64,000 nt of DNA, from IMG/VR virus record IMGVR_UViG_2925891887_000001. The stretch is one strand, 5' to 3'. Shown here one piece after another: positions 2,384 to 64,000 of the stretch (the stretch's first letter is position 1; each line of letters opens with the position of its first letter). The translations under genes and the position numbers were made by a program. This DNA comes from a virus (Duplodnaviria; Heunggongvirae; Uroviricota; Caudoviricetes). The notes under the pieces are model-generated. The model made no database searches, was not told the DNA's origin, and saw nothing but the letters and a program-made list of their open reading frames with translations.

Positions 2384-4699
2384 ATGATAAGCATCGTAAA
2401 ACGTAACGGCCAAACAGAGCCGTTATCCGAAGAAAAATACAACCGCGTCGTAATGTATGGCGTAGAAGGCATTCGTGGTGTAAGCGCATCCGCTGTAGCA
2501 ATGGGAGCTGCGGCCAGCATTTTTGATGGGATGACCACCAGCCAGTTGCATGAGGCTTTGGTTAAATCTGCCGCTGATTTGATCTCACCAGAAGCACCAA
2601 ATTACTCACAGGTGGCTGCCCGCCTGAACATTTTTAAAATCCGCAAAGATGCCTTCGGTCGTTACGACTATCCGAACTTCTACCAACACATTGTCAAGAA
2701 CGTTAACAAGGGCGTTTATGACAAGGATTTGCTGACACATTATTCGTTTGAAGAGATCGAAGAACTCGGCAATTACATTAAGCCTAAACGTGACGATCTT
2801 TTTGGCTATGCAGCTACGGTGCAGTTGCAAAGCAAATACCTCGTTCAAAACCGTGTTACTGGTGAGATTCATGAGGGGCCGCAACATATCTATATGCTGG
2901 TAGGCATGTGTCTGTTCCAGAATTGGGAAGACGACTGCGCTGGCAAAACACGTATGGAGATGGTCAAAGGTTTCTATGACGTTACAAGTACGTTCAAACT
3001 GTCTCTGCCCACACCAATCATGGCCGGCGTCCGTACTCCAACCCGTCAGTTCTCCAGTTGTGTGCTGATTGAGTCTGGCGATAGTCTGAAAGGGATTAGT
3101 GCAGCTTCAGCCGCAATTATCGACTACGTTTCACGTCGTGCTGGAATTGGTATTGGTTTTGGCCGTATCCGTGCGCTGGGCAGCGAGATCCGCAATGGTG
3201 AAGCCACCCATACCGGAGTTATTCCATTCCTGAAGCATTTCCAGACGGCTGTTAAATCTTGTTCGCAAGGTGGTGTTCGTGGTGGCGCAGCAACAGCGTT
3301 TTACCCGATCTGGCATCTTGAAGTTGAAAGTCTGCTGGTGGTGAAAAATAACCGTGGTATTGATGAAAACCGCGTTCGCCATCTTGATTACGGCGTCATG
3401 AGTAACCGTCTAATGTACCGTCGACTCGTCAGAAGCGAGAACATCACTCTGTTCAGCCCGCATGATGTGCCTGATATGTACGAAGCCTTCTTCACAGACC
3501 AGGAGCTGTTTGAAAAGCTGTACCATAAATACGAAGCCGATGATTCAATTCGCAAGAAGTCAGTACCTGCCATTGAGCTGTTCTCATCTCTGATGCAGGA
3601 ACGAGCGTCCACGGGCCGAATTTATATTGCGAACGTCGATCATATTAATGAGCATGGCGCTTTCATTCCTGCTCTTGCACCTGTCCGCCAGTCAAACCTG
3701 TGTATGGAGATCACCCTACCCACCCGTCCACTGGCATTTACCGACGACCCGAACGGTGAGATCGCGCTATGCACTTTATCCGCTTTTAACCTCGGAGCCA
3801 TCCGTTCACTGGAGTCTCTTAAAGAGGTGGCGTTCTATGCCGTTGCTGCACTGGATTCGTTACTGGATTATCAAGACTATCCGATGGAGGCAGCCGAAGT
3901 GCCTGCCAAAGCTCGTCGTAGCTTGGGAATTGGTGTAACCAACTTTGCTTATTACCTGGCAAAGAATGGCGTTCGTTATTCTGATACCGCTGGCAATAAA
4001 CTGGTGCATGAAACATTCGAAGCTATCCAGTATTACCTTCTTGATGCCAGCTGCCGACTTGCTGAAGCAAAAGGTGAGTGTGACTGGTTTGAGCAGACCA
4101 AGTACGCAATTGGTCAGTTGCCGATCGACCATTACCGTTCTTCATTAGACGAAAGTGGCGAAACCAACTTTGAGTTAAAGATGCCGTGGGAAGAACTGCG
4201 TGAACGTATTGCAAAATACGGCCTTCGCAACTCCACACTGACGGCACAAATGCCATGCGAGACTTCCAGCCAGATCACTAATTCCACCAACGGCATCGAA
4301 CCGCCTCGTGGCCCGGTGTCGGTGAAATCTTCTAAGGACGGCATCGTTAAGATGGTCGTGCCTGAGTTTGAAAAACTGAAGGAACAGTATGAATACCTGT
4401 GGGATATGCCGGACAACCGCGGCTATCTGACAAAGGTGGCGATCATCCAGAAGTTCTTTGACCAGGCTATTTCAGCCAATACCAACTATGACCCTTCTCG
4501 CTTTGAAGGCGATAAAGTCCCAATGATGACGCTACTGTCAGATTTGCTTCTCGCCTACAAGATGGGAGTTAAAACGCTTTACTACCACAACACCAGAGAT
4601 GGGGCAGGAAAGCGTGATGACGACGAACCGCAAAATCCACTGACGCAAGCTGTAGCCGTCGAGCCAGAAGATGAGTGCGACGGAGCCTGCAAAATCTGA
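2384..4699 (+). CDS. nrdA: ribonucleoside-diphosphate reductase alpha subunit (class Ia, with ATP-cone)
   Basis: 771 aa; near-colinear with E. coli NrdA as I recall it (PTPIMAGVRTPTRQFSSCVLIE, NLCMEI, C-terminal CDGACKI). Confidence 0.93.
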   Translation: MISIVKRNGQTEPLSEEKYNRVVMYGVEGIRGVSASAVAMGAAASIFDGMTTSQLHEALVKSAADLISPEAPNYSQVAARLNIFKIRKDAFGRYDYPNFYQHIVKNVNKGVYDKDLLTHYSFEEIEELGNYIKPKRDDLFGYAATVQLQSKYLVQNRVTGEIHEGPQHIYMLVGMCLFQNWEDDCAGKTRMEMVKGFYDVTSTFKLSLPTPIMAGVRTPTRQFSSCVLIESGDSLKGISAASAAIIDYVSRRAGIGIGFGRIRALGSEIRNGEATHTGVIPFLKHFQTAVKSCSQGGVRGGAATAFYPIWHLEVESLLVVKNNRGIDENRVRHLDYGVMSNRLMYRRLVRSENITLFSPHDVPDMYEAFFTDQELFEKLYHKYEADDSIRKKSVPAIELFSSLMQERASTGRIYIANVDHINEHGAFIPALAPVRQSNLCMEITLPTRPLAFTDDPNGEIALCTLSAFNLGAIRSLESLKEVAFYAVAALDSLLDYQDYPMEAAEVPAKARRSLGIGVTNFAYYLAKNGVRYSDTAGNKLVHETFEAIQYYLLDASCRLAEAKGECDWFEQTKYAIGQLPIDHYRSSLDESGETNFELKMPWEELRERIAKYGLRNSTLTAQMPCETSSQITNSTNGIEPPRGPVSVKSSKDGIVKMVVPEFEKLKEQYEYLWDMPDNRGYLTKVAIIQKFFDQAISANTNYDPSRFEGDKVPMMTLLSDLLLAYKMGVKTLYYHNTRDGAGKRDDDEPQNPLTQAVAVEPEDECDGACKI

Positions 4700-15601: not shown

Positions 15602-15706
15602 TGACAAGGGCCAAATGGCCCTTGTGTTTCGTTGACCGAAATAGAGAGTTTGCACCTTTACGTTTAGCTTGCTCCCCTTTTATGCCACATCACAATAAAG
15701 CCAATA

Positions 15707-18194: not shown

Positions 18195-18899
18195 ATGAGC
18201 AACCTCCAGTTAGAGCATTTTAACGTCACAGGCCATTCCGATTTTCCTTTCAAGTTTACATTGAAAGGTTATGCAGAGGATGCGGTAGGCCAGATCATTA
18301 TTGATAAAGACATCGTTAAGTTTGAGGGGAATTTTGATGAATCCGCGAAAACATTCATAGACTTCGTTGCCAAACGTTGGAGCGAGCAATGGAAAAACCT
18401 GGAAAAGCGCGCCAATGAGTTTGATCGGTTCATGGATGCAATGGATACAGCAAAAGAGGCTCTTGATGCCGGGACTCCGTTAGATCTGGAGTCACTTTTC
18501 AACGGCGAAGTGGCCTCTGCGATGTTCGCCACCATGTTCGCGGGTGAGTTCGTCCGCAGCGGTGCCAAAAACTACCTTGAGCTGGATTACAACGTCCCTG
18601 CAATTGGCGATTTCGTCGTTACCATCCAACGCAAAGAAGGTAAGACGCCAGGTGAACGCGTCGCAGAGCTTGAGGCCGTTGTGGATCAGCGTAACGGAGA
18701 GTGTGACCGTTTGATCAACGAGCTTCATGCACTTCGGGAAGAAAGAATATGTGCGGGTAGCAATACACGTAATGCAGCGGATATCTACTTCCAGTTAGTT
18801 GAGGAATGCCAGATTCCACCAGGTGGCTCTCTTGTCGATTACGTCAGACATTTAATGGCGGAAGTTAACTCCAGCCATAAAGATGGTGAGGTGCGCTGA
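18195..18899 (+). CDS. hypothetical protein (234 aa)
   Basis: Conserved leader AGAGAAAACACATG. Confidence 0.45.
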   Translation: MSNLQLEHFNVTGHSDFPFKFTLKGYAEDAVGQIIIDKDIVKFEGNFDESAKTFIDFVAKRWSEQWKNLEKRANEFDRFMDAMDTAKEALDAGTPLDLESLFNGEVASAMFATMFAGEFVRSGAKNYLELDYNVPAIGDFVVTIQRKEGKTPGERVAELEAVVDQRNGECDRLINELHALREERICAGSNTRNAADIYFQLVEECQIPPGGSLVDYVRHLMAEVNSSHKDGEVR

Positions 18900-19279
18900 T
18901 GTTTGGCATTGACGCACAGCGTATAGCCGCTTTTGCAAAAAGCCCTCTTGATAATCCCTTGTCTCGTAGTGAGCAAATGGAGCTGGCAAGGCTTTTTATT
19001 CACATTCAAAAACAGGCAGACGTTTTCAATAACATGCCTAATCAACCTATTCTGGATGGTCACATCCAGATGGTCATTAACAGTCATGAGAAAGGCTGGG
19101 CTGCAATCGTCCCCTGCACAATTACATACAGGTTGGCGAAAGAGGTTCAAGAGTTTCGAAAAGCCAGTGTCGAATCGGAGTCTACCAAAGCCGCAATAAA
19201 CACTCTTATTCGCATGGGGTTCACATGGACCGGTGGAGCCTACTGGCAAGCACCTCACCCCATTTTATCCGGCAATTAG
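18899..19279 (+). CDS. hypothetical protein (126 aa)
   Basis: ATG overlaps upstream stop. Confidence 0.4.
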   Translation: MFGIDAQRIAAFAKSPLDNPLSRSEQMELARLFIHIQKQADVFNNMPNQPILDGHIQMVINSHEKGWAAIVPCTITYRLAKEVQEFRKASVESESTKAAINTLIRMGFTWTGGAYWQAPHPILSGN

Positions 19280-19441
19280 ACGCTACAAATCCTTCGGCAT
19301 GAATAAATAAAGGCCATAAGTTGTGGCCTTAAATAAATTGTTTTCTACCTTTTCTTATTTGTGAAAATAACCACAACTAGAAAACAACGGAGTTAAGAAT
19401 GTCTAGTATTTCCGAAGCTCATATGTTCGCCGCTGGCGCTC

Positions 19442-19568
19442 GGTGATGCTGCCAACTTACTGATTTAGTGTATGATGGTGTTTTTGAGGTGCTCCAGTGG
19501 CTTCTGTTTCTATCAGCTGTCCCTCCTGTTCAGCTACTGACGGGGTGGTGCGTAACGGCAAAAGCACC
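19442..19568 (+). mobile_element. IS1 fragment (left terminal inverted repeat through insA codon 24 only)
   Basis: Identical to IS1 positions 1-127 and to the reverse complement of the complete IS1 at 54445-55212; identity stops abruptly inside insA. Confidence 0.9.
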
Positions 19569-19577
19569 ACCTTTTTA

Positions 19578-20678
19578 TCACACTGCGCGGAATGCGATTT
19601 CGCCAGGTATTACTTCACCTTGCCAATACATTTGGGCAGCAACGCGATCTGCGAGGTCACGATAAATAGCCGTAAATTCACTATCTGGACGACTAATAAC
19701 GGTTGGTGTTCCGTTATCCAGATCTTCACGAAGAGAGATATGAAGTGGCATTTGGCCTAACAACTGCGTGTTGTATTTCTCGGCCAGTTTCTGTGCGCCA
19801 CCGGTGCCAAAAATTGGCTCGTGATGACCGCAGTTACTGCAAATATGCACACTCATGTTTTCAACGATACCCAGTACCGGCACTTCGACTTTTTCGAACA
19901 TCACAATGCCTTTCTTCGCATCGATCAGCGCGATGTCTTGCGGCGTAGTTACCACAACCGCACCAGTTACAGGAATGTTCTGCGCCAGCGTCAATTGAAT
20001 ATCACCAGTGCCCGGTGGCATATCGAGAACGAGATAGTCCAGATCAGGCCACAGTGTTTCCTGCAACATCTGCATCAGCGCCTTGCTGGCCATCGGTCCA
20101 CGCCACACCATTGCATTGTCGTCGGTGACCAGATAACCAATAGAGTTGGTTGCCAGGCCATGAGACATGATAGGTGCCATGTGAGTACCGTCCGGTGAGG
20201 TTGGACGTTGGTTTTCCGCGCCCAGCATGGTTGGAATTGATGGACCATAGATATCGGCATCCAAAATACCAACTTTCGCACCTTCAGCAGCCAACGCCAG
20301 TGCCAGGTTTACCGCCGTGGAGGATTTACCCACGCCGCCCTTGCCCGAGCTGACGGCGATAATGTTCTTAACGCCATTAATGCCTGGTTGGTTTTTGACG
20401 CGCTTAAGCGTGGCAATGTTGTACGACAGCTTCCAGTCAATAGCCTTTGCGCCAGTGATACGGAGCAGATCACCACTACATTGCTCTTTCAGGTCTTCAA
20501 AAGGCTTATTCCACACGAAAGGCATGATTAGTTCGACATGCAGTGTGTCATCCATCAACGCAACATGGTGTAACGCTTTAAGCGTAGTCAGGTTGTGTTT
20601 CAGGGTTGGGTGCTGAAAATTAGCCAGCGTACCGGCTACCATTGCTCTCAGGGCATCCGGCGATTTGGACTCGCTCAT
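19578..20678 (-). CDS. apbC: Fe-S cluster carrier ATPase Mrp/ApbC (E. coli chromosomal gene)
   Basis: 366-aa ORF with deviant Walker [12 protein letters not shown], CxxC pair (ICSNCGHH) and near-identity to E. coli Mrp as I recall it. Confidence 0.9.
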
Positions 20679-23500: not shown

Positions 23501-24691
23501 ATGACTGATACCGCTTTTTCAAAATCGTTACAAAAAGAAGTCGATCCTGAGCAGTACTTGGCGCTAAAGAATTTAGATGACAGCTCGGTTCATGCTATTG
23601 CCCGTGACGATATCATCTGCCCCATTTGCAAAGTTGGAGGTGGTTCGTTCGTTAGAGCCACTAGGAATGGTGGCTATCACAAGAAGGCGCATTTCAGATT
23701 TACCGGTGAAGATGGTCAAGGCCATCATCCATCATGTGATTTCTATGGAGATAGACTAACATCTGAGGTGAAGCAGCACCTTGTCTCATTCACAAAAGAT
23801 CGAACAAAGTATTCGCAGGTAATACGAAAGCTGGTCTGTGCCGGCATACAGGAAGGGATATTTACTCAAGAAAAAATGTGGCAGATGAGGGAATGGTTCT
23901 TCAATAAGCGAAAGGATTCCACATTTGAAATATGGTTAGAAAGCGAGCATTTAGACTGGCTTTATTATATTAGTGGGTTACGTGATGCATATCTAGCATG
24001 GACAACTCCTGATATTCTACCTTTCGCGCCCATTCAGGTTACTGTGCCTGGTTTTTCTTGGAAGCGTGCGATTGACAAAGAGGTGCTAAGAGTTCACATC
24101 AAGACTCTCCAGCAATTGCGTGAAATTTCAGTCTCACATAGAGACATTGCTGTAATCTTAGAACACATAAACAATAATCGTGACCGCACAATTCTCGATC
24201 CATCGCATTTGGAGGACGAGATAAGTAAGACCTGTAAGCTTACTAGTTTTGTGATGGGCAATTACATTGAGTTTCAGACAAAAACGGTTAGCGACAGAGC
24301 ATACGGGGAAGCTAAGTTTCTGGCATTTGCAGCACTTTTGTTGTTCGTGTCAGATTGGGACCTCAACATTGCTATTGGTAAGTTTTCTAAGATTGCCAGA
24401 GTGAAGGAGGTTGATGACATGCTGGCTGGTAATTTCATTGGTCTTAATCCTTACTTCCGATACGACCTGGCTAATGCAGTGAAGAGATTGCAGGATAACT
24501 GGCCGATTGAATACCAAGAGTTGGAGCATTGGAATGTTGAGAAATCCATGCGTGACGCATATGAAAAGTGGCGTGCGACAGAGCCTGAATTCGCTCCACC
24601 CCTATTGCCAGACTTGTATATTGCCAAACATGAGAAAGAAGTCGCACAAGACGAGCAAGTCAGGCAGTGGATTAAGAACGGGGATGTTTGA
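23501..24691 (+). CDS. hypothetical protein with N-terminal zinc-ribbon-like motif (396 aa)
   Basis: SD GGAG; CPICKVGGGS ... HHPSCDFYG cysteine/histidine cluster; no family recognised. Confidence 0.45.
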   Translation: MTDTAFSKSLQKEVDPEQYLALKNLDDSSVHAIARDDIICPICKVGGGSFVRATRNGGYHKKAHFRFTGEDGQGHHPSCDFYGDRLTSEVKQHLVSFTKDRTKYSQVIRKLVCAGIQEGIFTQEKMWQMREWFFNKRKDSTFEIWLESEHLDWLYYISGLRDAYLAWTTPDILPFAPIQVTVPGFSWKRAIDKEVLRVHIKTLQQLREISVSHRDIAVILEHINNNRDRTILDPSHLEDEISKTCKLTSFVMGNYIEFQTKTVSDRAYGEAKFLAFAALLLFVSDWDLNIAIGKFSKIARVKEVDDMLAGNFIGLNPYFRYDLANAVKRLQDNWPIEYQELEHWNVEKSMRDAYEKWRATEPEFAPPLLPDLYIAKHEKEVAQDEQVRQWIKNGDV

Positions 24692-24829
24692 GTGTAATTA
24701 GCTTAATCAATCAGTTGATAATGGCGGTCACAATTTGATTCTTTTCTATAAGAATCCGTTGATCGCCACTACTCTTCTTCCATACCTGCAATCACACCTT
24801 TAAATATCAATAGGTTAACGTTGTTTATA

Positions 24830-25675
24830 CCAATAAGAAAACAACTAAATAACAGATCAACGAAACATCAACGCTTTCACCCGATTTGGTCTAAAAAATT
24901 GACGTTTTCACACATCACTTCTTATACCCGTAATTCTACGCAGCAGATAGCGCTACAGCGTCCAAATTTCACCACAGACGACTCAACACACTACCAACAA
25001 AAACACACGCTCAAAATCGCTCCCGTTGCGTTACACAACCATATAAACAACTTATTTTCAGGTATAACAAAACAACTAAATAACACACATGCCATTACCC
25101 AAAACAACCAACCTCTTTATGGCAGGCTACCGAAAAGACCCACCTCTTCTCCCCAGGCTACCGGACAACCAACCTAACTTTCACAGGCAATCCGAAAACA
25201 TTCATACGCGCGATACCCACGACACGCCATTACCCAAACAGCGAAGAAACACCAGAATCACTGAAAACCCAACGAAGCCTGTTACCGCAAGGATTCTCTC
25301 AATCCCAAAAGACACGAAACAGAACAATCACGGGAAACGCCATTACCCAATACACGAATAACTACAAAAGCCTTTCACACACTCCAGACAAACAACTCAA
25401 ACACAATAACGAAAGGAATCGCCCACCTGCCATTACTCCATACACGGAGAAGAACAATCACCAAAACGACGAGAACACCCCATAGAAGAACCACCGCAAA
25501 ACGAACGAAACCACATACACCGACAGAGAGAACAACACACCCAATTCACCAACAGAAATAGTCGCCGTATAGAACGTTCTGGAAGGAGTGAGCATTAACG
25601 CCTATAGAGAGGTTGAGACAGATAAAACACAACATGTATAGCGAAGAAGCCAGGTATGTATAAGTGGGGAGGGAA
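24830..25675 (+). ncRNA. candidate long G-depleted (A/C-rich) non-coding transcript
   Basis: About 12% G over about 730 bp; begins at a half motif-A promoter-like element; four spaced GCCATTACCC copies; ends at terminator 25676-25697; only low-complexity chance ORFs. Confidence 0.3.
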
Positions 25676-25697
25676 GGAGGGGTGTCGCCTCCTTTTT
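25676..25697 (+). terminator. intrinsic terminator
   Basis: ggagg...cctcc stem followed by TTTTT. Confidence 0.5.
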
Positions 25698-25744
25698 CGT
25701 ATTTATTCAACTCCTGATTTTATCCCCCGTAACACCCCTACGGT

Positions 25745-25900
25745 CAGCCTTCGGTCCATACAGGGAAAAGGTTGCATCCCGCTACAGAAACGGCTGGGTT
25801 GCCTTCGGGGAACGGCTGGAGGTTTTCAGGGAAACGGTCGAGTTGCCTGTGTGGATTTCGGGAAAAGGCTCGATGCCGGTTCAGGAACGGTGGCGTACCG
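25745..25900. repeat. array of at least 6 degenerate 22-24-bp repeats with core (C/T)AGGGAAAcGG
   Basis: cagggaaaaggttgc, cagaaacggctggg, cggggaacggctgg, cagggaaacggtcg, cgggaaaaggctcg, caggaacggtggcg. Confidence 0.6.
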
Positions 25901-26271
25901 GTATAGCGAGAGGGAGAGTTGCGGCTACCCACCTGTAATGTGCGGGAAGAAGAGAGGCGCTCACGTAGGCGGACTTGCTTACCGCTGGATTCCCTCTGAA
26001 TGCCCAGCTACAGCGTAATTGTGCCAGACAGCCAGCGGGTCACAATCGATTTCAGTAGGTTTTTGGGGAGAGGATTACTCTGCCACCAGCCACTTTCGGC
26101 CACTAAATCAGAATAATGTAAAAAGTGCACTCGGTACTGAACCTGAAAACTCACTGCCAAAACCACATTCACCGGAATAAAATCCTTTTTCGCCTGTGCG
26201 TTATTGCGATAATAACACCAACAAGTAAACAACATGTTTAGACGTTATATAAACGAAGTGAGGATGAAGAG

Positions 26272-26490
26272 ATGATTAAGATGCCTGTGACGGTTGAGGT
26301 GTGGGGCGTGGATTCCCTGGCTGAGTGTCTGGATGCAGTGGGGCCGGAGTTGTACCGCAAGTTGTGGTCGTTCGTCCCGGCAGAAGGGGAACCGCCCAAG
26401 GGGAAGGATATCTGGCACCTGCTGAGTGAAGATGAAAAGCGGGAGCTGGTGGACGCGGTACACAGCGAGTTCCCGGGCGACGAAGATTAA
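26272..26490 (+). CDS. hypothetical small acidic protein (72 aa)
   Basis: SD GAGGATGAAGAG then ATG; terminator immediately downstream. Confidence 0.45.
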   Translation: MIKMPVTVEVWGVDSLAECLDAVGPELYRKLWSFVPAEGEPPKGKDIWHLLSEDEKRELVDAVHSEFPGDED

Positions 26491-27111: not shown

Positions 27112-27423
27112 ATGAAAAAATCATTGGTTCTTGGTCTGGACAAAGACCAGAAGAGAAAAGAGAAGCCTGCGCTGGTTGCTCAATTAACTTTGCTGGACAT
27201 CGTTGCCAATGGGACCTCTATTCGTCTGTTCCGTGAAACAGCGGTGTCTTTCGATAAAAACACCTTTACTCGTTATGTAATGAATGTTCGTCGCCAGCGT
27301 GGAAAAGGCTGGGTGGCATTTCAAAGAATGTGGCCGGAACATCAGCTCGAACTGGCTTTGATGGAAGTTAACCGCGTGGCCCAGCAAGAGATTCAGAGAG
27401 CATCAGTGATGGCAATAGCCTGA
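27112..27423 (+). CDS. hypothetical protein (103 aa)
   Basis: SD ACGGAG; motif A at 27085-27100. Confidence 0.45.
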   Translation: MKKSLVLGLDKDQKRKEKPALVAQLTLLDIVANGTSIRLFRETAVSFDKNTFTRYVMNVRRQRGKGWVAFQRMWPEHQLELALMEVNRVAQQEIQRASVMAIA

Positions 27424-28062: not shown

Positions 28063-28437
28063 ATGGGACTTGATATCTATATCGAGACACAGCCTAAAAA
28101 CGATCTGAATAACGAGGCATCCAGAAAGCAGGTTGCTTACTTCCGTAAGTTCAATGCGCTCGTTGGGTGGATGGAGCGCAACGTAGGTGAAGTCGAAAAT
28201 TGTGAGCTTTTAGAATTAACGATGAATGACATTTGTTTTCTGAAGGCTCATTTGATGCACATAAACGAAAGTAATTGCGAAGAGTACTTGCCTACCCGGG
28301 AAGGTTTTTTCTTCGGCAGTCAGGAGTACGATGAAGGTTACTGGCATGATGTGGGGCAGTTGAAAGAGCTTGTGGAAGATCTGATTAAGAACCACGACTT
28401 TCACAATAACAGACTGACCTTCTGCGCCTGGTGGTAA
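28063..28437 (+). CDS. hypothetical protein (124 aa)
   Basis: ATG after SD AAGGAAACC; motif A at 27990-28004. Confidence 0.45.
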   Translation: MGLDIYIETQPKNDLNNEASRKQVAYFRKFNALVGWMERNVGEVENCELLELTMNDICFLKAHLMHINESNCEEYLPTREGFFFGSQEYDEGYWHDVGQLKELVEDLIKNHDFHNNRLTFCAWW

Positions 28438-28439
28438 AT

Positions 28440-28583
28440 ATGGGCGATTTCAAGAAACGCCTGAAGGAAAGAGCCGAGATGGTCAGAAAGCAAAACGCCT
28501 CTTCTGTCATCAGATACGCAAGGCAGTTTAGTCGCAACAACAAATCAGTTGAGGAAAAGATCCTTAGCGTAATCGTGCGATAA
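28440..28583 (+). CDS. small basic protein (about 47 aa)
   Basis: ATG 3 nt after upstream stop; below ORF-track cutoff. Confidence 0.25.
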   Translation: MGDFKKRLKERAEMVRKQNASSVIRYARQFSRNNKSVEEKILSVIVR

Positions 28584-28609
28584 TTATTAAGGCCATCAGC
28601 ATTGGTGGC

Positions 28610-28725
28610 CTTAAATGACCATCTTGTTTCCCGCAGGCTAAAAACACCAACCTCTTACCTCCAGGCAACCGACAAACCCACCTGTTCCCGTCCGGCTACC
28701 GCAACTTTCCACTTTGACGCCTTAT
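28610..28725. repeat. second A/C-rich G-poor segment (related to 24830-25560)
   Basis: caggctaaaaacaccaacctcttacctccaggcaaccgacaaacccacctgttcccgtccggctaccg parallels caggctaccgaaaagacccacctcttctccccaggctaccggacaacc near 25.12 kb. Confidence 0.5.
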
Positions 28726-28751
28726 TCGTACAACGATAATTAACACCAACA

Positions 28752-28766
28752 AGAAAACAATTTGTT
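28752..28766. promoter_or_regulatory. motif A palindrome AGAAAACAATTTGTT
   Basis: 21 nt upstream of ATG 28788. Confidence 0.5.
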
Positions 28767-31326: not shown

Positions 31327-31851
31327 TTAAAATGGAAGGATTCGTTCAACCCAATCGAAGAAAACAAGTATTTTTCTGCCGTCTTCTAACTTAAGAGTGA
31401 CCTGGCAAGCATCAACGCCTCTTGACACCCCTTCTATTTCACGACCGTCTGTCATGTAGACCCTTATAGATTGGTCGTTTTGATAAGCCTTGCGACATAT
31501 CGCAAAAAAGTCACGGCGTGATGGCTGATTGTCAACATAGTCTGGATGTATTGTTAGCCTACCTTTGAACTCGCGAGCAATGTCATCGATTACACCTGAT
31601 TCAATTGTGCTAATGCGCTCAAGTGGGAGTCTTATACGATTTTCTTTATCATATGGAATCGGGCATAAATCTAGCTTATTGCGTGAAGGCATTGTCCCCT
31701 GAACGTACATGCAAAACACCTGACCGTCTTCAAGCGTGACTCTTACAGGAATGTTGTTCTTCCGCCAGAACATAAGTATGTTCTCAGCATGTTCGTAGTC
31801 TCGCGGCCAGACTTCAGCCGGTATGCCGTAGGTGATGTCCAATGTTCTCAT
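31327..31851 (-). CDS. hypothetical protein (174 aa), AT-rich cassette
   Basis: 4-nt overlap with upstream gene (translational coupling). Confidence 0.45.
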   Translation of the reverse strand: MRTLDITYGIPAEVWPRDYEHAENILMFWRKNNIPVRVTLEDGQVFCMYVQGTMPSRNKLDLCPIPYDKENRIRLPLERISTIESGVIDDIAREFKGRLTIHPDYVDNQPSRRDFFAICRKAYQNDQSIRVYMTDGREIEGVSRGVDACQVTLKLEDGRKILVFFDWVERILPF

Positions 31852-62366: not shown

Positions 62367-62406
62367 CGGGCAAGGATAGCCCGCCAAATCAAGGAGCATA
62401 TTCAAC

Positions 62407-64000
62407 ATGTGGTACAGGGAAGGTACTATCACATTTACACAGGGCAGCAATACTCTGGTTGGGGCAGGGACAGCCTGGAACGTAACAGCTAATGGTGTGT
62501 TGCCGGGGATGATCGTCATTGGCCCCGACAATAAGCTGTATGAGATCAAGCGCGTAACCAGTGATACGAACATTGTTCTCTCAGAACCTTATACCGGCGA
62601 AACTCAGTCTGAAGTTCCGTGCCGAATCATTACGACCTATGAAGGCGACTTAACACAGTTTAGCGCGCGCTTTACTGCGCTAATGTCGCGTATGTCGGCT
62701 GATTCCAAGTCCATACGCAGTTGGTTGACTGCGCTGGATGAGGTGACAATCGAGCGTGAAGACGGTACAGAAGTGACCGTTAAGCCGCTAATGCAGATCG
62801 TCAACGAGCACAACGAAAACGTTGAGTGGTATAAAAATAACACTGACGCGATTGATGCTGCTGGCGACAAAGCTCGTGAGGCGGCGGCCAGTGCTGCCGC
62901 AGCAGCAAAAAGCGCCAATGCCGCTGGAGAAAAAGCCTCTCAAGCGTCTCAAAGTGCATCCGCTGCGGCATCCTCACAAAGTGCCGCAAGTGCGAGTGCA
63001 ACTGCTGCGAAAAAATCTGAAACGAATGCTGCAGCGTCACAAAAATCTGCAGCCACTTCTGCATCCACCGCGACCACGAAGGCGTCAGAAGCTGCCACCT
63101 CAGCCCGGGATGCGGCGGCCTCAAAAGAGGCAGCGAAATCATCAGAAACGAGCGCAGCCTCGAGCGCCAGTAATGCCGCTTCCTCGGCAACGGCGGCAGG
63201 AAATTCCGCGAAGGCGGCAAAAACGTCCGAGACGAACGCCAGGTCTTCTGAAACGGCAGCGGGACAGAGCGCCTCGGCTGCGGCAGGCTCAAAAACAGCG
63301 GCTGCGTCGTCTGCCAGTGCCGCGTCAACAAGTGCCGGGCAGGCCTCAGCCAGTGCCACCGCCGCCGGAAAATCGGCAGAAAGTGCCGCATCGTCTGCTT
63401 CAACTGCCACAACGAAGGCTGGCCAAGCCACTGAACAGGCCAGCGCAGCAGCGAGGTCTGCTTCCGCAGCGAAGACATCCGAAACGAACGCGAAAGCGTC
63501 GGAAACCCGTGCAGAATCCTCAAAAACGGCAGCCGCATCGTCCGCCAGTTCGGCGGCGTCATCGGCATCATCGGCGTCTGCTTCAAAAGATGAGGCGACC
63601 AGACAGGCGTCAGCAGCGAAGGGCAGCGCCACGACGGCATCCACGAAAGCAACAGAGGCGGCAGGCAGTGCGACGGCAGCATCTCAGAGCAAAACTGCTG
63701 CTGAATCCGCTGCGACCCGTGCGGAAGCTGCTGCTGATCGTGCTGAAGAGATTGCCGGTGCAGTTGCGATGGAAGACGCAAGCCTTACAACTAAAGGTGT
63801 TGTGAAACTTAGCAGTGCTGTCGACAGCACCAGTGAATCGCTGGCCGCAACGCCAAAAGCAGTTAAAGCAGCCAATGACAATGCGAATAGCAGGGTGCCA
63901 TCTAACCGAAAAGTTAACGGTAAAGCACTGACTGCGGATATCAAATTAACGCCGAAAGATATTGGTACTTTAAATTCAGTAACGATGTCTTTCTCTGGCG
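62407..64000 (+). CDS. side tail fibre protein, lambda Stf-like (3' end beyond window)
   Basis: SD AGGAG; long Ala/Ser/Thr-rich collagen-like segment nearly colinear with lambda Stf as I recall it (KTSETNARSSETAA..., ATPKAVK); frame open to window end. Confidence 0.85.
   Translation, partial: MWYREGTITFTQGSNTLVGAGTAWNVTANGVLPGMIVIGPDNKLYEIKRVTSDTNIVLSEPYTGETQSEVPCRIITTYEGDLTQFSARFTALMSRMSADSKSIRSWLTALDEVTIEREDGTEVTVKPLMQIVNEHNENVEWYKNNTDAIDAAGDKAREAAASAAAAAKSANAAGEKASQASQSASAAASSQSAASASATAAKKSETNAAASQKSAATSASTATTKASEAATSARDAAASKEAAKSSETSAASSASNAASSATAAGNSAKAAKTSETNARSSETAAGQSASAAAGSKTAAASSASAASTSAGQASASATAAGKSAESAASSASTATTKAGQATEQASAAARSASAAKTSETNAKASETRAESSKTAAASSASSAASSASSASASKDEATRQASAAKGSATTASTKATEAAGSATAASQSKTAAESAATRAEAAADRAEEIAGAVAMEDASLTTKGVVKLSSAVDSTSESLAATPKAVKAANDNANSRVPSNRKVNGKALTADIKLTPKDIGTLNSVTMSFSG

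Follow-up and report, generated by a model that had tools for sequence, protein, structure and literature searches.

The analysed DNA stretch of 64 kb (hereafter the window) derives from a phage-plasmid of the SSU5/pHCM2 type. It contains a gap free of coding sequences at 24692-26271 (1.58 kb), which encloses an A/C-rich stretch and is shared with phage SSU5 and 837 PLSDB plasmids. Its right end is marked by a bona fide early promoter with its operator on the plus strand (26186-26239; GATAAT at 26208-26213, AAACAACATGTTT at 26227-26239), which drives the gene 26272-26490, a match to phrog_6757 at 2e-43. The gene immediately 5′ of the gap is co-oriented in all nine annotated phage-plasmid relatives (L003-L008, L010-L012), and is often non-homologous among them. 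Phage-plasmids of the SSU5/pHCM2 type are common in clinical Enterobacteriaceae, and accessory cargo adjoins the A/C-rich stretch. The locus is a conserved non-coding module of 1.6 kb, described by no annotation, at the border between variable cargo and repressed early-lytic genes.

The A/C-rich stretch at 24830-25560 (hereafter the tract) consists of 40.8 % A, 31.5 % C, 15.7 % T and 12.0 % G on the plus strand. This agrees with the G content of about 12 % given in an earlier note on this DNA, and the enrichment in A+C described there was also found, at 72 % instead of about 75 %. The tract is the strongest compositional outlier of the 64 kb, and no other part comes close. In 300-nt windows, A+C peaks at 0.76 compared to 0.498 ± 0.041 for the 64-kb window, and G decreases to 0.10 compared to 0.248 ± 0.036. 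The trinucleotides AAC, ACA, and CAC occur at three to four times the window average. A scan of both strands for C>G bubbles, using a 78-nt window and the definition and thresholds of PMC6144790, revealed an uninterrupted bubble of 845 nt on the plus strand (24731-25575; area 15,045 %xbp), ranking first out of 1,453, with the next largest area being 5,700. By this criterion, the boundaries proposed previously (24830-25697) shift to 24731-25575, within the larger gap. The bubble is A/C-rich and G/T-poor, and its RNA is predicted to be unstructured: the minimum free energy is -5.1 kcal/mol per 80 nt, compared to -16.8 ± 5.2 kcal/mol, and only 2.7 % of the samples from the window fold more weakly. 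A stable RNA structure was rejected for the whole A/C tract (z -0.78 against shuffles), and long-range pairing of the 31-nt repeats described below with the purine-rich 3′ zone was no better than in shuffles (z -1.9 to +1.6, 21 lineages). Downstream of the tract lies a G-rich zone (25759-25900, plus strand) with 35-39 % G and about five copies of TTC(A/G)GGGAAA(A/C)GG, in which the minus strand is C>G. This zone folds worse than shuffles (z +1.94). Its positions are poorly conserved, yet the motif recurs.

Two open reading frames are present on the plus strand of the tract, 24821-25177 (118 aa) and 25089-25361 (90 aa). They had been considered chance ORFs, and in agreement with this neither matches Pfam or PHROG, and 20 relatives do not retain their start codons, reading frames or stops. 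ORFs of at most 54 aa also exist on the minus strand across the tract, where none had been reported. Some annotations (CYRAN_103; PhiR41_1 XSB42477) predict a low-complexity protein from one of the plus-strand ORFs, and two phage records carry the entry 'hypothetical protein'. We find such a protein hardly credible. In most of the 20 relatives the start codon is absent, the length is not a multiple of three and one to five in-frame stops occur; a premature stop is found even in a relative with 96-97 % identity, and PGAP gives no call at the tract in ten out of ten plasmid loci. Indels among relatives (1, 2, 8, 13, 19, and 31 nt) are frame-breaking. Since T-poor sequence is depleted of stop codons, chance ORFs are expected in the tract. 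Protein coding was ruled out by the unconserved ORFs and the absence of Pfam and PHROG matches, and the tract is regarded as non-coding. Judging from the sequence, its RNA would be free of translating ribosomes.

The tract harbours several repeats, with all 12 copies on one strand. Four dispersed copies of GCCATTAC(C/T)C (25091-25438, plus strand) start at 25091, 25226, 25339, and 25429. These are the positions previously given for four copies of GCCATTACCC, which is exact in the first three, while the fourth reads GCCATTACTC. The relatives possess six copies of GCCATTAC(C/T)C, several of them extended to GCCATTACyCMATACACGGAGAAGAAC. The spacing is irregular, with 135, 113, and 90 nt here and 142, 90, 45, 41, and 52 nt in SSU5. 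Three tandem 31-nt units (25099-25190, plus strand) follow the consensus ACCCACCTCTT(N5)CAGGCTACCGA(N3), and contain the two exact CAGGCTACCG units noticed before, at 25123 and 25154. The unit pattern has four matches in the 64-kb window compared to 0.08 expected, and the number of units differs by one more or less among relatives. In E. coli, the 31-nt repeat was found on plasmids only and never on chromosomes, in 235 out of 5,426 complete genomes. Conservation across genera was seen for the motifs GCCATTAC, CAGGCTACCGA, ACCCACCTCTT, and ACGGAGAAGAAC, and extends to their G residues.

An element similar to the leaders of early genes, CCAATAAGAAAACAACTAAATAACA, is located at 24830-24854 (plus strand), with a second copy at 25064-25085. 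Exact copies of CCAATAAGAAAACAAC are present at 24830 and 15701, and 14 copies with up to three mismatches were found compared to 0.88 expected. The likeness to the early leader at 15701 noted earlier is therefore exact, while the one assigned to 28743 is detected only when up to three mismatches are allowed, at 28746. CCAATAAGAAAACAAC is the leader/operator part of early promoters, and in the copy at 24830 the palindrome is missing its downstream half, TTGTTT, so that 24830-24854 is a half-operator. Within the element, AAGAAAACAA.TAAATAACA is invariant in relatives. A sigma-70 early promoter of this phage-plasmid was taken to require a -35, a GATAAT-type -10 placed 4-5 nt before CCAAnAAG, and further downstream a complete AAACAAnTTGTTT operator. 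Position 24830 does not belong to this class, with GTTTATA upstream and TAAATAACA downstream, and the sigma-70 scan called no promoter within 24700-25700; the promoter-like start proposed at 24830 was thus not confirmed.

Further downstream, an inverted repeat (G/A)TCAAC...(G/A)TTGAC (24866-24906, plus strand) has about 26 nt between its arms. It is conserved in 18 distinct sequences with one two-sided pair change (C-G to T-A, in L011 and L060), and would suit a palindrome in DNA as well as a stem in RNA. Its right arm overlaps the TTGACG of a putative promoter-like element, TTGACG-N18-TATACC (24899-24928, plus strand), which has a weak -10 without the final T. In this element, TTGACGTTT and TCTTATA are invariant in the alignment of relatives (A1). 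The element was not called by the sigma-70 scan, and no RNA was found downstream of it in lysogen RNA-seq. The operator palindrome of the early region, AAACAAnTTGTTT, is present in the tract as AAACAACTTATTT (25045-25057, plus strand) and conserved as TAAACAAnTTGTTTTCAGG in relatives. Fifteen copies of AAACAAnTTGTTT were detected in the 64-kb window compared to 0.42 expected, and the fourteen outside the tract are all intergenic. Twelve out of the fourteen are in early promoter or leader contexts (4.7-28.8 kb), and the other two are at 39.2 kb, just upstream of packaging genes.

A near-invariant nested imperfect palindrome or hairpin without U-tract, named block (a), is found at 24709-24772 (plus strand), with the outer stem GGCGGTCA/TGATCGCC and the inner stem GATTCTT/AAGAATC. 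The predicted RNA fold has -19.3 kcal/mol (z -4.75), and none of 200 shuffles was as good. In annotated relatives, block (a) starts mostly 15-30 nt past the stop codon of the upstream gene, whichever gene this is, and it is 79-100 % identical across clades that share only about 60-70 % elsewhere. The pattern TGGCGGTCAC..TTGA..TTTCTATAAGA of this block finds 63 IMG/VR contigs and four genome contigs. On the other side of the tract, the hairpin followed by T5 that had been reported near 25676-25697 was found at 25671-25697 (plus strand), with a purine arm and a pyrimidine arm. It is terminator-like in the E. coli clade alone; outside this clade the U-run is missing, and the nine consensus pairs show no compensatory changes across 15 distinct sequences. 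This hairpin folds only marginally better than shuffles (z -1.7). A second, smaller design of hairpin plus repeats is located at 28587-28705 (plus strand), and on the same strand in relatives. It comprises a hairpin without U-tract (28587-28614; -17.5 kcal/mol, z -3.9) and three 30-nt units of the 31-nt repeat family of the tract (28615-28705), followed by a promoter at 28716. The C-G skew of 28611-28760 is at or above the 99th percentile.

The tract is carried by the plaque-forming phage SSU5 and by 837 plasmids, from at least seven genera. Compared to distant clades, the identity of the tract is 59-73 %, and that of the adjacent gene 27112-27423 is 61-65 %, with 37-46 % at its third codon positions, well below the tract. 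The tract is conserved to about the same degree as this neighbouring gene. Its base composition is retained in 21 non-redundant relatives; the C>G bias is seen in every clade, and is kept in variable alignment columns (C 33 %, G 20 %). This strand asymmetry points to a property of the plus-strand transcript. The tract of one plasmid carries an IS3 insertion, and large Klebsiella plasmids hold truncated copies. In Y. pestis pFra, the replicon including repA is kept and the tract region is lost.

Published RNA-seq data were available for the relative Cyrano in LF82, in ten samples from lysogenic and macrophage conditions. CYRAN_103, which corresponds to 24821-25177 of the window, has 0-14 fpkm in ten out of ten samples, with 45-587 fpkm for the upstream CYRAN_102 and up to about 220 fpkm for the downstream CYRAN_105. 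From CYRAN_102 to CYRAN_103 the RNA falls 8-fold to more than 100-fold in each of the ten samples, and the drop is complete within about 110 nt past the upstream stop codon; the upstream gene of Cyrano differs from that of the window. A discrete ncRNA is therefore not supported for lysogens, within these lysogenic and macrophage samples. The earlier note had proposed a discrete transcript bracketed by promoter and terminator and had named its absence as evidence against the proposal. Under lysogenic and macrophage conditions this absence is what the Cyrano stretch shows. The part of the proposal that holds is an A/C-rich, strand-asymmetric, conserved and functional-looking non-coding stretch.

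Tentatively, and with somewhat less than even confidence, we propose that the tract forms the core of a Rho-dependent insulator, a conserved and untranslated barrier to transcription within the early region of phage-plasmids of the SSU5/pHCM2 type. Its features resemble those of a stable long ncRNA less than those of a very long Rho-dependent barrier that separates blocks of genes. Rightward transcripts from variable, partly lysogen-expressed accessory genes would extend beyond the stop codon through some 850 nt of C>G RNA that is unstructured and free of ribosomes, the putative Rho-loading (rut) zone, where Rho would load and terminate transcription. The unstructured tail would then be trimmed back to the hairpin of block (a), as the 3′ end of the upstream message. 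With termination and trimming, the repressed early-lytic genes (from 26272) would be read from their own operator-controlled promoters only. For leftward transcripts, the G-rich zone with its C>G minus strand may have an equivalent role.

Rho-dependent termination was reported for all tested templates with a bubble, calculated in a 78-nt window, of more than 78 bp or an area of more than 700 %xbp, and the criterion is a C>G bubble that continues without interruption for at least about 80 nt on the non-template strand (PMC6144790); that of the tract has 845 nt. Similar to Rho-dependent terminators, the tract is weakly structured, apparently untranslated and contains at least one [(YC)N9-13]4, with six starts of chains of at least four and one chain of six in the bubble. 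Loss of the transcript in vivo was found at the homologous site in Cyrano. The Rho primary site favours A and C, in poorly structured C>G regions (PMC12360218). Trimming of Rho-dependent 3′ ends has been described (Dar and Sorek 2018, as cited in PMC12360218; also PMC12350095), which fits a strong hairpin without U-tract followed by C-rich RNA, as in block (a) with the tract and again at 28587-28705. Silencing of prophage genes by Rho is established (Cardinale 2008, Menouni 2013, both as cited in PMC12360218). On these grounds we infer Rho as the agent and insulation as the selected function.

Nonetheless, 850 nt in a size-limited phage genome far exceeds what a terminator needs, given that rut sites need 60-90 nt (PMC12360218). 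The YC dimers are suitably spaced but not enriched, with 7.1 [(YC)N9-13]4 per kb in the bubble and 6.6 per kb on the plus strand of the window. The in vivo support comes from Cyrano with its different upstream gene, and there the drop precedes much of the rut RNA, so that a Rho-dependent insulator fits only on the assumption of trimming; an effect of block (a) that does not involve Rho would account for the drop equally well. Furthermore, the conservation of GCCATTAC, CAGGCTACCGA, ACCCACCTCTT, and ACGGAGAAGAAC across genera is more than Rho, which has no need of a specific sequence, would demand. A phage factor may bind to the sequence-specific repeats (GCCATTAC and the 31-nt units) and thereby modulate the barrier. 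As the insulator leaves the conserved motifs unexplained, there is room for a protein-binding RNA or a DNA-level array.

Irregular conserved repeats in unstructured RNA are a known protein-sponge design, as in CsrB and CrcZ, and the tract could accordingly encode a discrete, trans-acting, unstructured A/C-rich RNA, made only in the lytic cycle, with repeats that titrate an RNA-binding factor. Its start would be an internal, repressor-controlled promoter close to 24899-24928 or 25045-25085, and its end the hairpin at 25697; the titrated factor could be Rho (as a decoy causing general antitermination), the phage's own FljA-family protein, or another host factor. The presence of all 12 repeat copies on one strand and the conserved TTGACG-N18-TATACC with operator-like sites close by are in agreement with such an RNA. 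So is a conserved protein of the FljA family (PF03614, 3e-80), which also gave a weak Sm/Hfq-like match, is encoded at 31327-31851 and is present in 830 plasmids; FljA is a post-transcriptional repressor of fliC (PMC2652032), and the Rho primary site prefers A/C-rich RNA (PMC12360218). We consider this RNA decidedly unlikely, because the stretch stays at 0-14 fpkm in all ten LF82 samples even when the flanking early genes reach about 200-590 fpkm, no sigma-70 promoter was called and the U-run of the terminator-like hairpin is confined to the E. coli clade. Hfq, Crc or CsrA sponges were rejected, as their motifs are not enriched ((ARN)x4 0 vs 1.4, AANAANAA 2 vs 2.9, GGA 5 vs 4.0). Rfam 15 gave nothing at gathering score in the 64-kb window, and the sole match in 24600-26300 (E = 2) is far below threshold. 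With no known sponge motif enriched and no Rfam match, the sequestration of an RNA-binding factor suggested in the earlier note was not corroborated. Because of the FljA-like gene, the tract was also compared with the fliC leader of E. coli K-12; the best local alignment is a 9-mer, ACCCAATAC, and 54 % of shuffles score as high, which is at chance. A gated barrier or decoy is likewise doubtful. Here, lytic A/C-rich RNA would be made or read through, and either GCCAUUAC and the 31-nt repeats would bind a phage protein, for example the conserved FljA-family, Sm-like protein, or Rho would be soaked up, so that Rho termination is switched off locally or globally.

At the DNA level, the 31-bp units (three helical turns) and GCCATTAC could be sites for a phage DNA-binding protein, in a lytic origin or enhancer, possibly with the G-rich zone as R-loop primer, or in a regulatory array that forms a pair with the second one, at a distance of 3.5 kb. 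This is possible but on the whole unlikely. Direct-repeat arrays with a period of 30-31 bp are present at two loci, the second directly ahead of a promoter; the region is transcriptionally quiet and includes palindromes of the repressor type, and a lytic origin must exist somewhere given that the phage-plasmid has genes of its own for RNase H, DnaE, helicase, and primase. However, double-stranded sites do not explain an A/C bias of one strand over 850 bp in variable spacer columns, the spacing of GCCATTAC is not helically phased, the region contains no DnaA box, and the Rep iterons (ACCGCTGACAGCATAC, 15 copies) and par genes are located elsewhere. Since pFra keeps its replicon without the region, it would be at most a lytic-only origin. 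Finally, the tract might have no present function and consist of decaying duplicates of A/C-rich early-promoter leaders and operators (e.g. ACACCAACAAGAAAACAAC), hitch-hiking between recombining modules. Leader-like fragments recur in the tract, the repeat copy number varies, and the IS3 insertion and the truncated Klebsiella copies are tolerated. We regard this as very unlikely in view of the almost invariant block (a), a tract identity that equals or exceeds that of gene 27112-27423 and lies well above its third codon positions, and the occurrence in a plaque-forming phage and hundreds of plasmids from several genera.

Among known systems, the lambda tR1 rut sites and the terminator of the rac immunity region (Menouni et al. 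2013, as cited in PMC12360218) also consist of untranslated, poorly structured C>G RNA downstream of a co-oriented expressed gene. As proposed for the tract, prophage-silencing Rho terminators protect repressed prophage genes from read-through, with an upstream stem-loop as the apparent 3′ end. The tract, for which Rho is a candidate, differs from a rut site in being about ten times longer, in its sequence conservation across genera, and in its embedded repeat families and operator-like sites. CsrB, CsrC and RsmZ (CsrA), and CrcZ (Hfq/Crc), are similar to the tract in that a short conserved motif is multiplied along a non-coding stretch of several hundred nt. Unlike in these sponges, their motifs are not enriched in the tract, no motifs are presented in hairpins, there is no Rfam match and no RNA was detected in lysogens. 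To our knowledge, no binder of GCCAUUAC(C/U)C has been described. In the leader of Salmonella mgtCBR, RARE is a single-stranded RNA element acting through Rho (PMC12360218); its likeness to the tract is conceptual only, as RARE is a short leader element regulated by uORF translation. Iteron arrays (P1 oriR/incA; P4 ori plus crr) share direct repeats at two loci and a tandem period near whole helical turns, whereas the tract has no adjacent initiator gene, no DnaA box and a strong single-strand base bias. Type III toxin-antitoxin ToxI-like repeats and phage pseudo-ToxI are similar in their tandem repeats of about 31 nt, A-rich junctions and variable copy number. However, no toxN-like gene is adjacent to the tract, and in E. 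coli the repeat is found on these phage-plasmids only.

If the tract is a Rho-dependent insulator, it would explain how lysogens express cargo without leak into lytic genes, and Rho inhibitors would be predicted to destabilise these lysogens. Such a natural terminator would also be exceptional in its length and conservation, and a useful subject for asking what Rho reads. Should the repeats bind a specific factor instead, they would point to a regulatory layer not yet described. A gated barrier, if true, would be either an RNA-based analogue of Psu, the P4 protein, or a novel antitermination system of RNA and protein, common to phage-plasmids in about 4 % of complete E. coli genomes and in many Klebsiella, Salmonella, and Enterobacter isolates.

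Other candidate identities were rejected. No Rfam family matches the tract, and no tRNA or tmRNA was found. A pseudo-antitoxin of a chromosomal type III toxin-antitoxin system is at odds with a repeat that is never on the E. coli chromosome. The likeness of block (a) and the CGCTC block to RfaH ops or lambda boxA, compared by eye, fails at key positions, and for a GcvB sponge, the stretches that seem complementary to its GU-rich seed fall in poorly conserved columns. A plasmid iteron or inc locus was dismissed because the replicon iterons differ in sequence and flank repA, about 31 kb away in pSTEC409_1, which is 98 % identical. A partition site was also discarded, as the parA/parB-like pair is located about 45 kb away; TCGCCA and ATTTCAC may resemble P1 parS boxes.

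The G-depletion reported in the earlier note was borne out, the stretch 24830-25560 consisting of A 40.8, C 31.5, T 15.7 and G 12.0 %. Among all 300-nt windows (A+C 0.498 ± 0.041), the A+C maximum of 0.76 and the G minimum of the window fall in this tract. The CCAATAAGAAAACAAC element, the GCCATTACCC copies, the two CAGGCTACCG units and the hairpin plus T5 were all located at the positions first assigned to them, and both CAGGCTACCG units belong to three 31-nt tandem repeats (25099-25190). The CDS-free gap, 24692-26271, exceeds the region first delimited, and is flanked on the left by a 409-aa gene (phrog_12525, 1.5e-209) and on the right by a 72-aa gene (phrog_6757, 2e-43).

On sequence grounds, the tract is non-coding. 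Its three longest plus-strand ORFs gave no match in Pfam or PHROG searches, and PGAP predicts no CDS in the tract at 10/10 plasmid loci. Twenty-one homologues, pairwise <96 % identical and drawn from plasmids and from IMG/VR and genome contigs, were aligned; in them the ORFs show lost start codons, length differences that are not multiples of three, and in-frame stops; such disruption is seen even in a relative 96-97 % identical. Indels among the homologues measure 1, 2, 8, 13, 19 and 31 nt. Since the tract is T-poor it is also stop-poor, and the ORFs annotated here in the phages Cyrano and PhiR41_1 were rejected, being best seen as artefacts of T-poor sequence.

A megablast search with 24600-26300 matched, among phages, only those of SSU5 type: Escherichia phages CMS-2020a, PhiR41_1 and Cyrano were 92-97 % identical, and Salmonella phage SSU5 matched partially. 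The same segment had 367 plasmid matches, the top one being E. coli pSTEC409_1 (98 %). These phage and plasmid matches identify the window as an SSU5/pHCM2-like phage-plasmid. More sensitive blastn with 24700-25720 recovered 837 PLSDB plasmids, mostly at 60-80 % identity, including Klebsiella (430), Escherichia (223), Enterobacter (90), Salmonella (49, including pHCM2), Citrobacter (25), Cronobacter (9) and Shigella (7). None of the annotations and accessible papers describes the element. According to the annotation of pSTEC409_1, the tract falls within a plus-strand run leading from nucleotide metabolism through variable accessory genes to small early genes, beyond which lie a minus-strand regulatory block and the packaging genes.

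The complete element is present in the plaque-forming phage SSU5. Yersinia pestis pFra keeps the replicon and downstream genes, and the whole element segment is gone, so plasmid maintenance does not require the element. At pFra 62379-63037, IS1541 stands in place of the nucleotide-metabolism, accessory and early genes and the A/C-rich element, and genes are retained from the 282-nt early gene onward, together with the FljA-like gene. In one E. coli phage-plasmid (NZ_CP019002.1, 58901-61816; match H25) an IS3 lies inside the element, which indicates that the plasmid state tolerates its disruption. Large non-phage Klebsiella plasmids (a 263-kb K. pneumoniae plasmid, L009, at 3001-3466, and matches H97-H103) carry only the first ~460 nt, from the left-edge hairpin to the 31-nt repeats; this partial element adjoins a type I restriction-modification system and a DUF262 gene, and is followed by ~3 kb without a listed gene.

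The gap opens with block (a), a nearly invariant nested hairpin without a U-tract (24709-24772; -19.3 kcal/mol, z -4.75), which usually starts 15-30 nt past the stop codon of the upstream gene, itself variable among relatives. A leader-like half-operator follows at 24830-24854, with a second copy at 25064-25085. Next is an inverted repeat, GTCAAC/GTTGAC; its right arm shares bases with a conserved TTGACG-N18-TATACC (24899-24928). Further to the right are the single tract copy of the palindrome AAACAAnTTGTTT (25045), the three 31-nt units, and GCCATTAC(C/T)C, of which the window has four copies and most relatives six. GAAC repeats mark a conserved, purine-richer stretch (~25440-25545); after it and the hairpin at 25671-25697 comes a G-rich zone (25759-25900, 35-39 % G). 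This zone holds about five TTC(A/G)GGGAAA(A/C)GG motifs, which recur in relatives at shifted positions, and two CUUCGG tetraloop-like sites; its RNA fold is worse than that of shuffles (z +1.94). The next true early promoter and operator lie at 26186-26239. In the right part of the gap, CCACCAGC (26083-26090) is the complement of the Chi sequence GCTGGTGG; it is kept in several, not all, clades, and as a lone 8-mer could be due to chance.

Every homologue has a tract of A 34-41, C 29-34, G 12-18 and T 13-17 %, with the G-rich zone next to it. Between distant clades and the window, the tract is 59-73 % and the 60-nt block (a) 79-93 % identical; for the same pairs, the neighbouring conserved gene 27112-27423 is 61-65 % identical, and its third codon positions 37-46 %. 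Columns variable among eight deep lineages still contain 33 % C and 20 % G, so the C>G bias is maintained independently of the conserved motifs. This bias argues for selection on one strand, as transcript or single-stranded DNA, and not on double-stranded binding sites alone.

The earlier note had read 24830-25697 as a candidate long ncRNA. Its observation of the region itself stands; the long-ncRNA interpretation is supported only in part, and the evidence is against a discrete transcript, at least in lysogens. The promoter-like start proposed at 24830 lacks the operator's second half as well as the canonical -10 and -35 that the early promoters have, and a sigma-70 promoter scan of 24700-25700 called none. 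In the terminal hairpin there are no compensatory pairs, and beyond the E. coli clade the U-run is lost. Strand-resolved RNA-seq published for E. coli LF82 (PMC9928086; values as log2(fpkm+5)) covers its phage-plasmid Cyrano, 96 % identical here. CYRAN_103 in the A/C-rich part (window 24821-25177) gave log2 2.32-4.27 (0-14 fpkm) across ten samples in five conditions, and CYRAN_104 in the G-rich part 2.6-4.66 (1-20 fpkm). The upstream gene CYRAN_102 reached 5.6-9.2 (45-587 fpkm) and the downstream early gene CYRAN_105 up to 7.8 (~220 fpkm). In these samples the region is therefore a transcriptional desert separating two active units.

The best-supported mechanism, which we put forward tentatively, is that the tract forms a very long, conserved, predicted Rho-dependent transcription barrier or insulator. 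Such terminators follow uninterrupted C>G bubbles, as measured in a 78-nt window; of 104 templates, each one whose bubble exceeded 78 bp or whose area exceeded 700 %xbp showed termination by Rho in vitro. Further descriptors that discriminated were high %C, %CA, %AAC, %ACA and %CAC, and weak structure (PMC6144790). The primary binding site of Rho favours A and C, with a rut length of 60-90 nt (PMC12360218). With a length of 845 nt (24731-25575) and an area of 15,045 %xbp, the tract is a single bubble that ranks first among the 1,453 of the two strands and is 2.6 times as large as the runner-up. In 80-nt windows its folding energy is -5.1 vs -16.8 ± 5.2 kcal/mol, and AAC, ACA and CAC occur at 3-4 times the window average. 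PMC12360218 (citing Dar and Sorek 2018) and PMC12350095 describe the trimming of Rho-terminated RNAs to upstream stem-loops, which fits the U-less hairpin just ahead of the tract and the sharp fall in RNA-seq signal; the former also treats silencing of prophage genes by Rho as established. Genes including lysogen-expressed cargo lie to the left, and operator-controlled early genes to the right. The Rho reading is favoured because the tract has these terminator properties, is untranslated, and is placed where a barrier makes biological sense. The G-rich zone may perform the same service for leftward transcripts; a minus-strand gene abuts it in the pHCM2, Enterobacter, Citrobacter and SSU5 versions.

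However, a terminator needs neither 850 nt nor motifs conserved across genera, and YC dimers with the proper spacing occur, though without enrichment. The RNA fall is complete within ~110 nt of the upstream stop, so trimming must be assumed, or else block (a) has a direct, Rho-independent role. The repeats therefore probably bind some factor. These unexplained repeat families leave room for a more novel, if improbable, reading. An array acting at the DNA level, for instance as a lytic origin or regulator platform, is rather unlikely and would leave the strand bias unexplained; an RNA made in the lytic phase and binding either Rho or a specific protein is improbable. Plasmid iterons were rejected, as the iteron sequence differs and lies at repA: the pSTEC409_1 replicon (18240-19992) has 15 iterons ACCGCTGACAGCATAC flanking a RepB-family initiator gene, in a P1-like oriR plus incA arrangement. 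The tract region has no DnaA boxes, the tract shows no enrichment of Hfq, Crc or CsrA motifs, and long-range RNA pairing was no better than in shuffles. A fliC-leader mimic (similarity at chance level) and a chromosomal type III antitoxin (no chromosomal copies in E. coli) were also rejected.

An obvious candidate binder is the FljA-family protein encoded at 31327-31851 (minus strand, 174 aa; PF03614, repressor of phase-1 flagellin, 3e-80), since Salmonella FljA acts on fliC post-transcriptionally (PMC2652032); nothing in this analysis ties it to the tract. The protein, named 'transcriptional regulator' by PGAP, has a weak Hfq/Sm match at residues 123-165, is ~35 % identical to true flagellin repressors, and has no solved structure. 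Its gene is a core gene found in 830 plasmids, including 62 Yersinia records (among them pFra), and LF82 lysogens express it (CYRAN_114, up to log2 8.1). The protein may silence host flagellin or regulate phage mRNAs.

The palindrome AAACAAnTTGTTT (13 bp) occurs in 15 copies in the window, all on the plus strand, vs 0.42 expected (4762, 14981, 15710, 16424, 19331, 22954, 23005, 25045, 26227, 26604, 27088, 27991, 28755, 39172 and 39197). Outside the tract the copies are intergenic: twelve, between 4.7 and 28.8 kb, are in early promoter or leader contexts, and the two at 39.2 kb precede the packaging genes. Copies either follow a GATAAT -10 and CCAAnAAG leader, ~20-30 nt ahead of the start codons of early genes, or overlap the -35 region. 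AAACAAnTTGTTT is presumably a repressor operator, and looks like the dispersed operator of one putative repressor governing a dozen early promoters, similar to P1 C1.

A smaller copy of the tract design is present at 28587-28705: a strong hairpin lacking a U-tract (z -3.9), then three 30-nt units, then a promoter. The units, of the form ACCCACCTnTT..GGCTACCG, are the tract's repeat within a C>G segment, and 14 nt separate the array from the -35 of the 28716 promoter. This second array is conserved on the same strand in relatives, ~3.3-4 kb downstream of the main one. A possible unannotated plus-strand ORF of 47 aa (MGDFKKRLKERAEMVRKQNAS..., 28440-28583) lies in the interval that separates this hairpin (from 28587) from the preceding gene, which ends at 28437.
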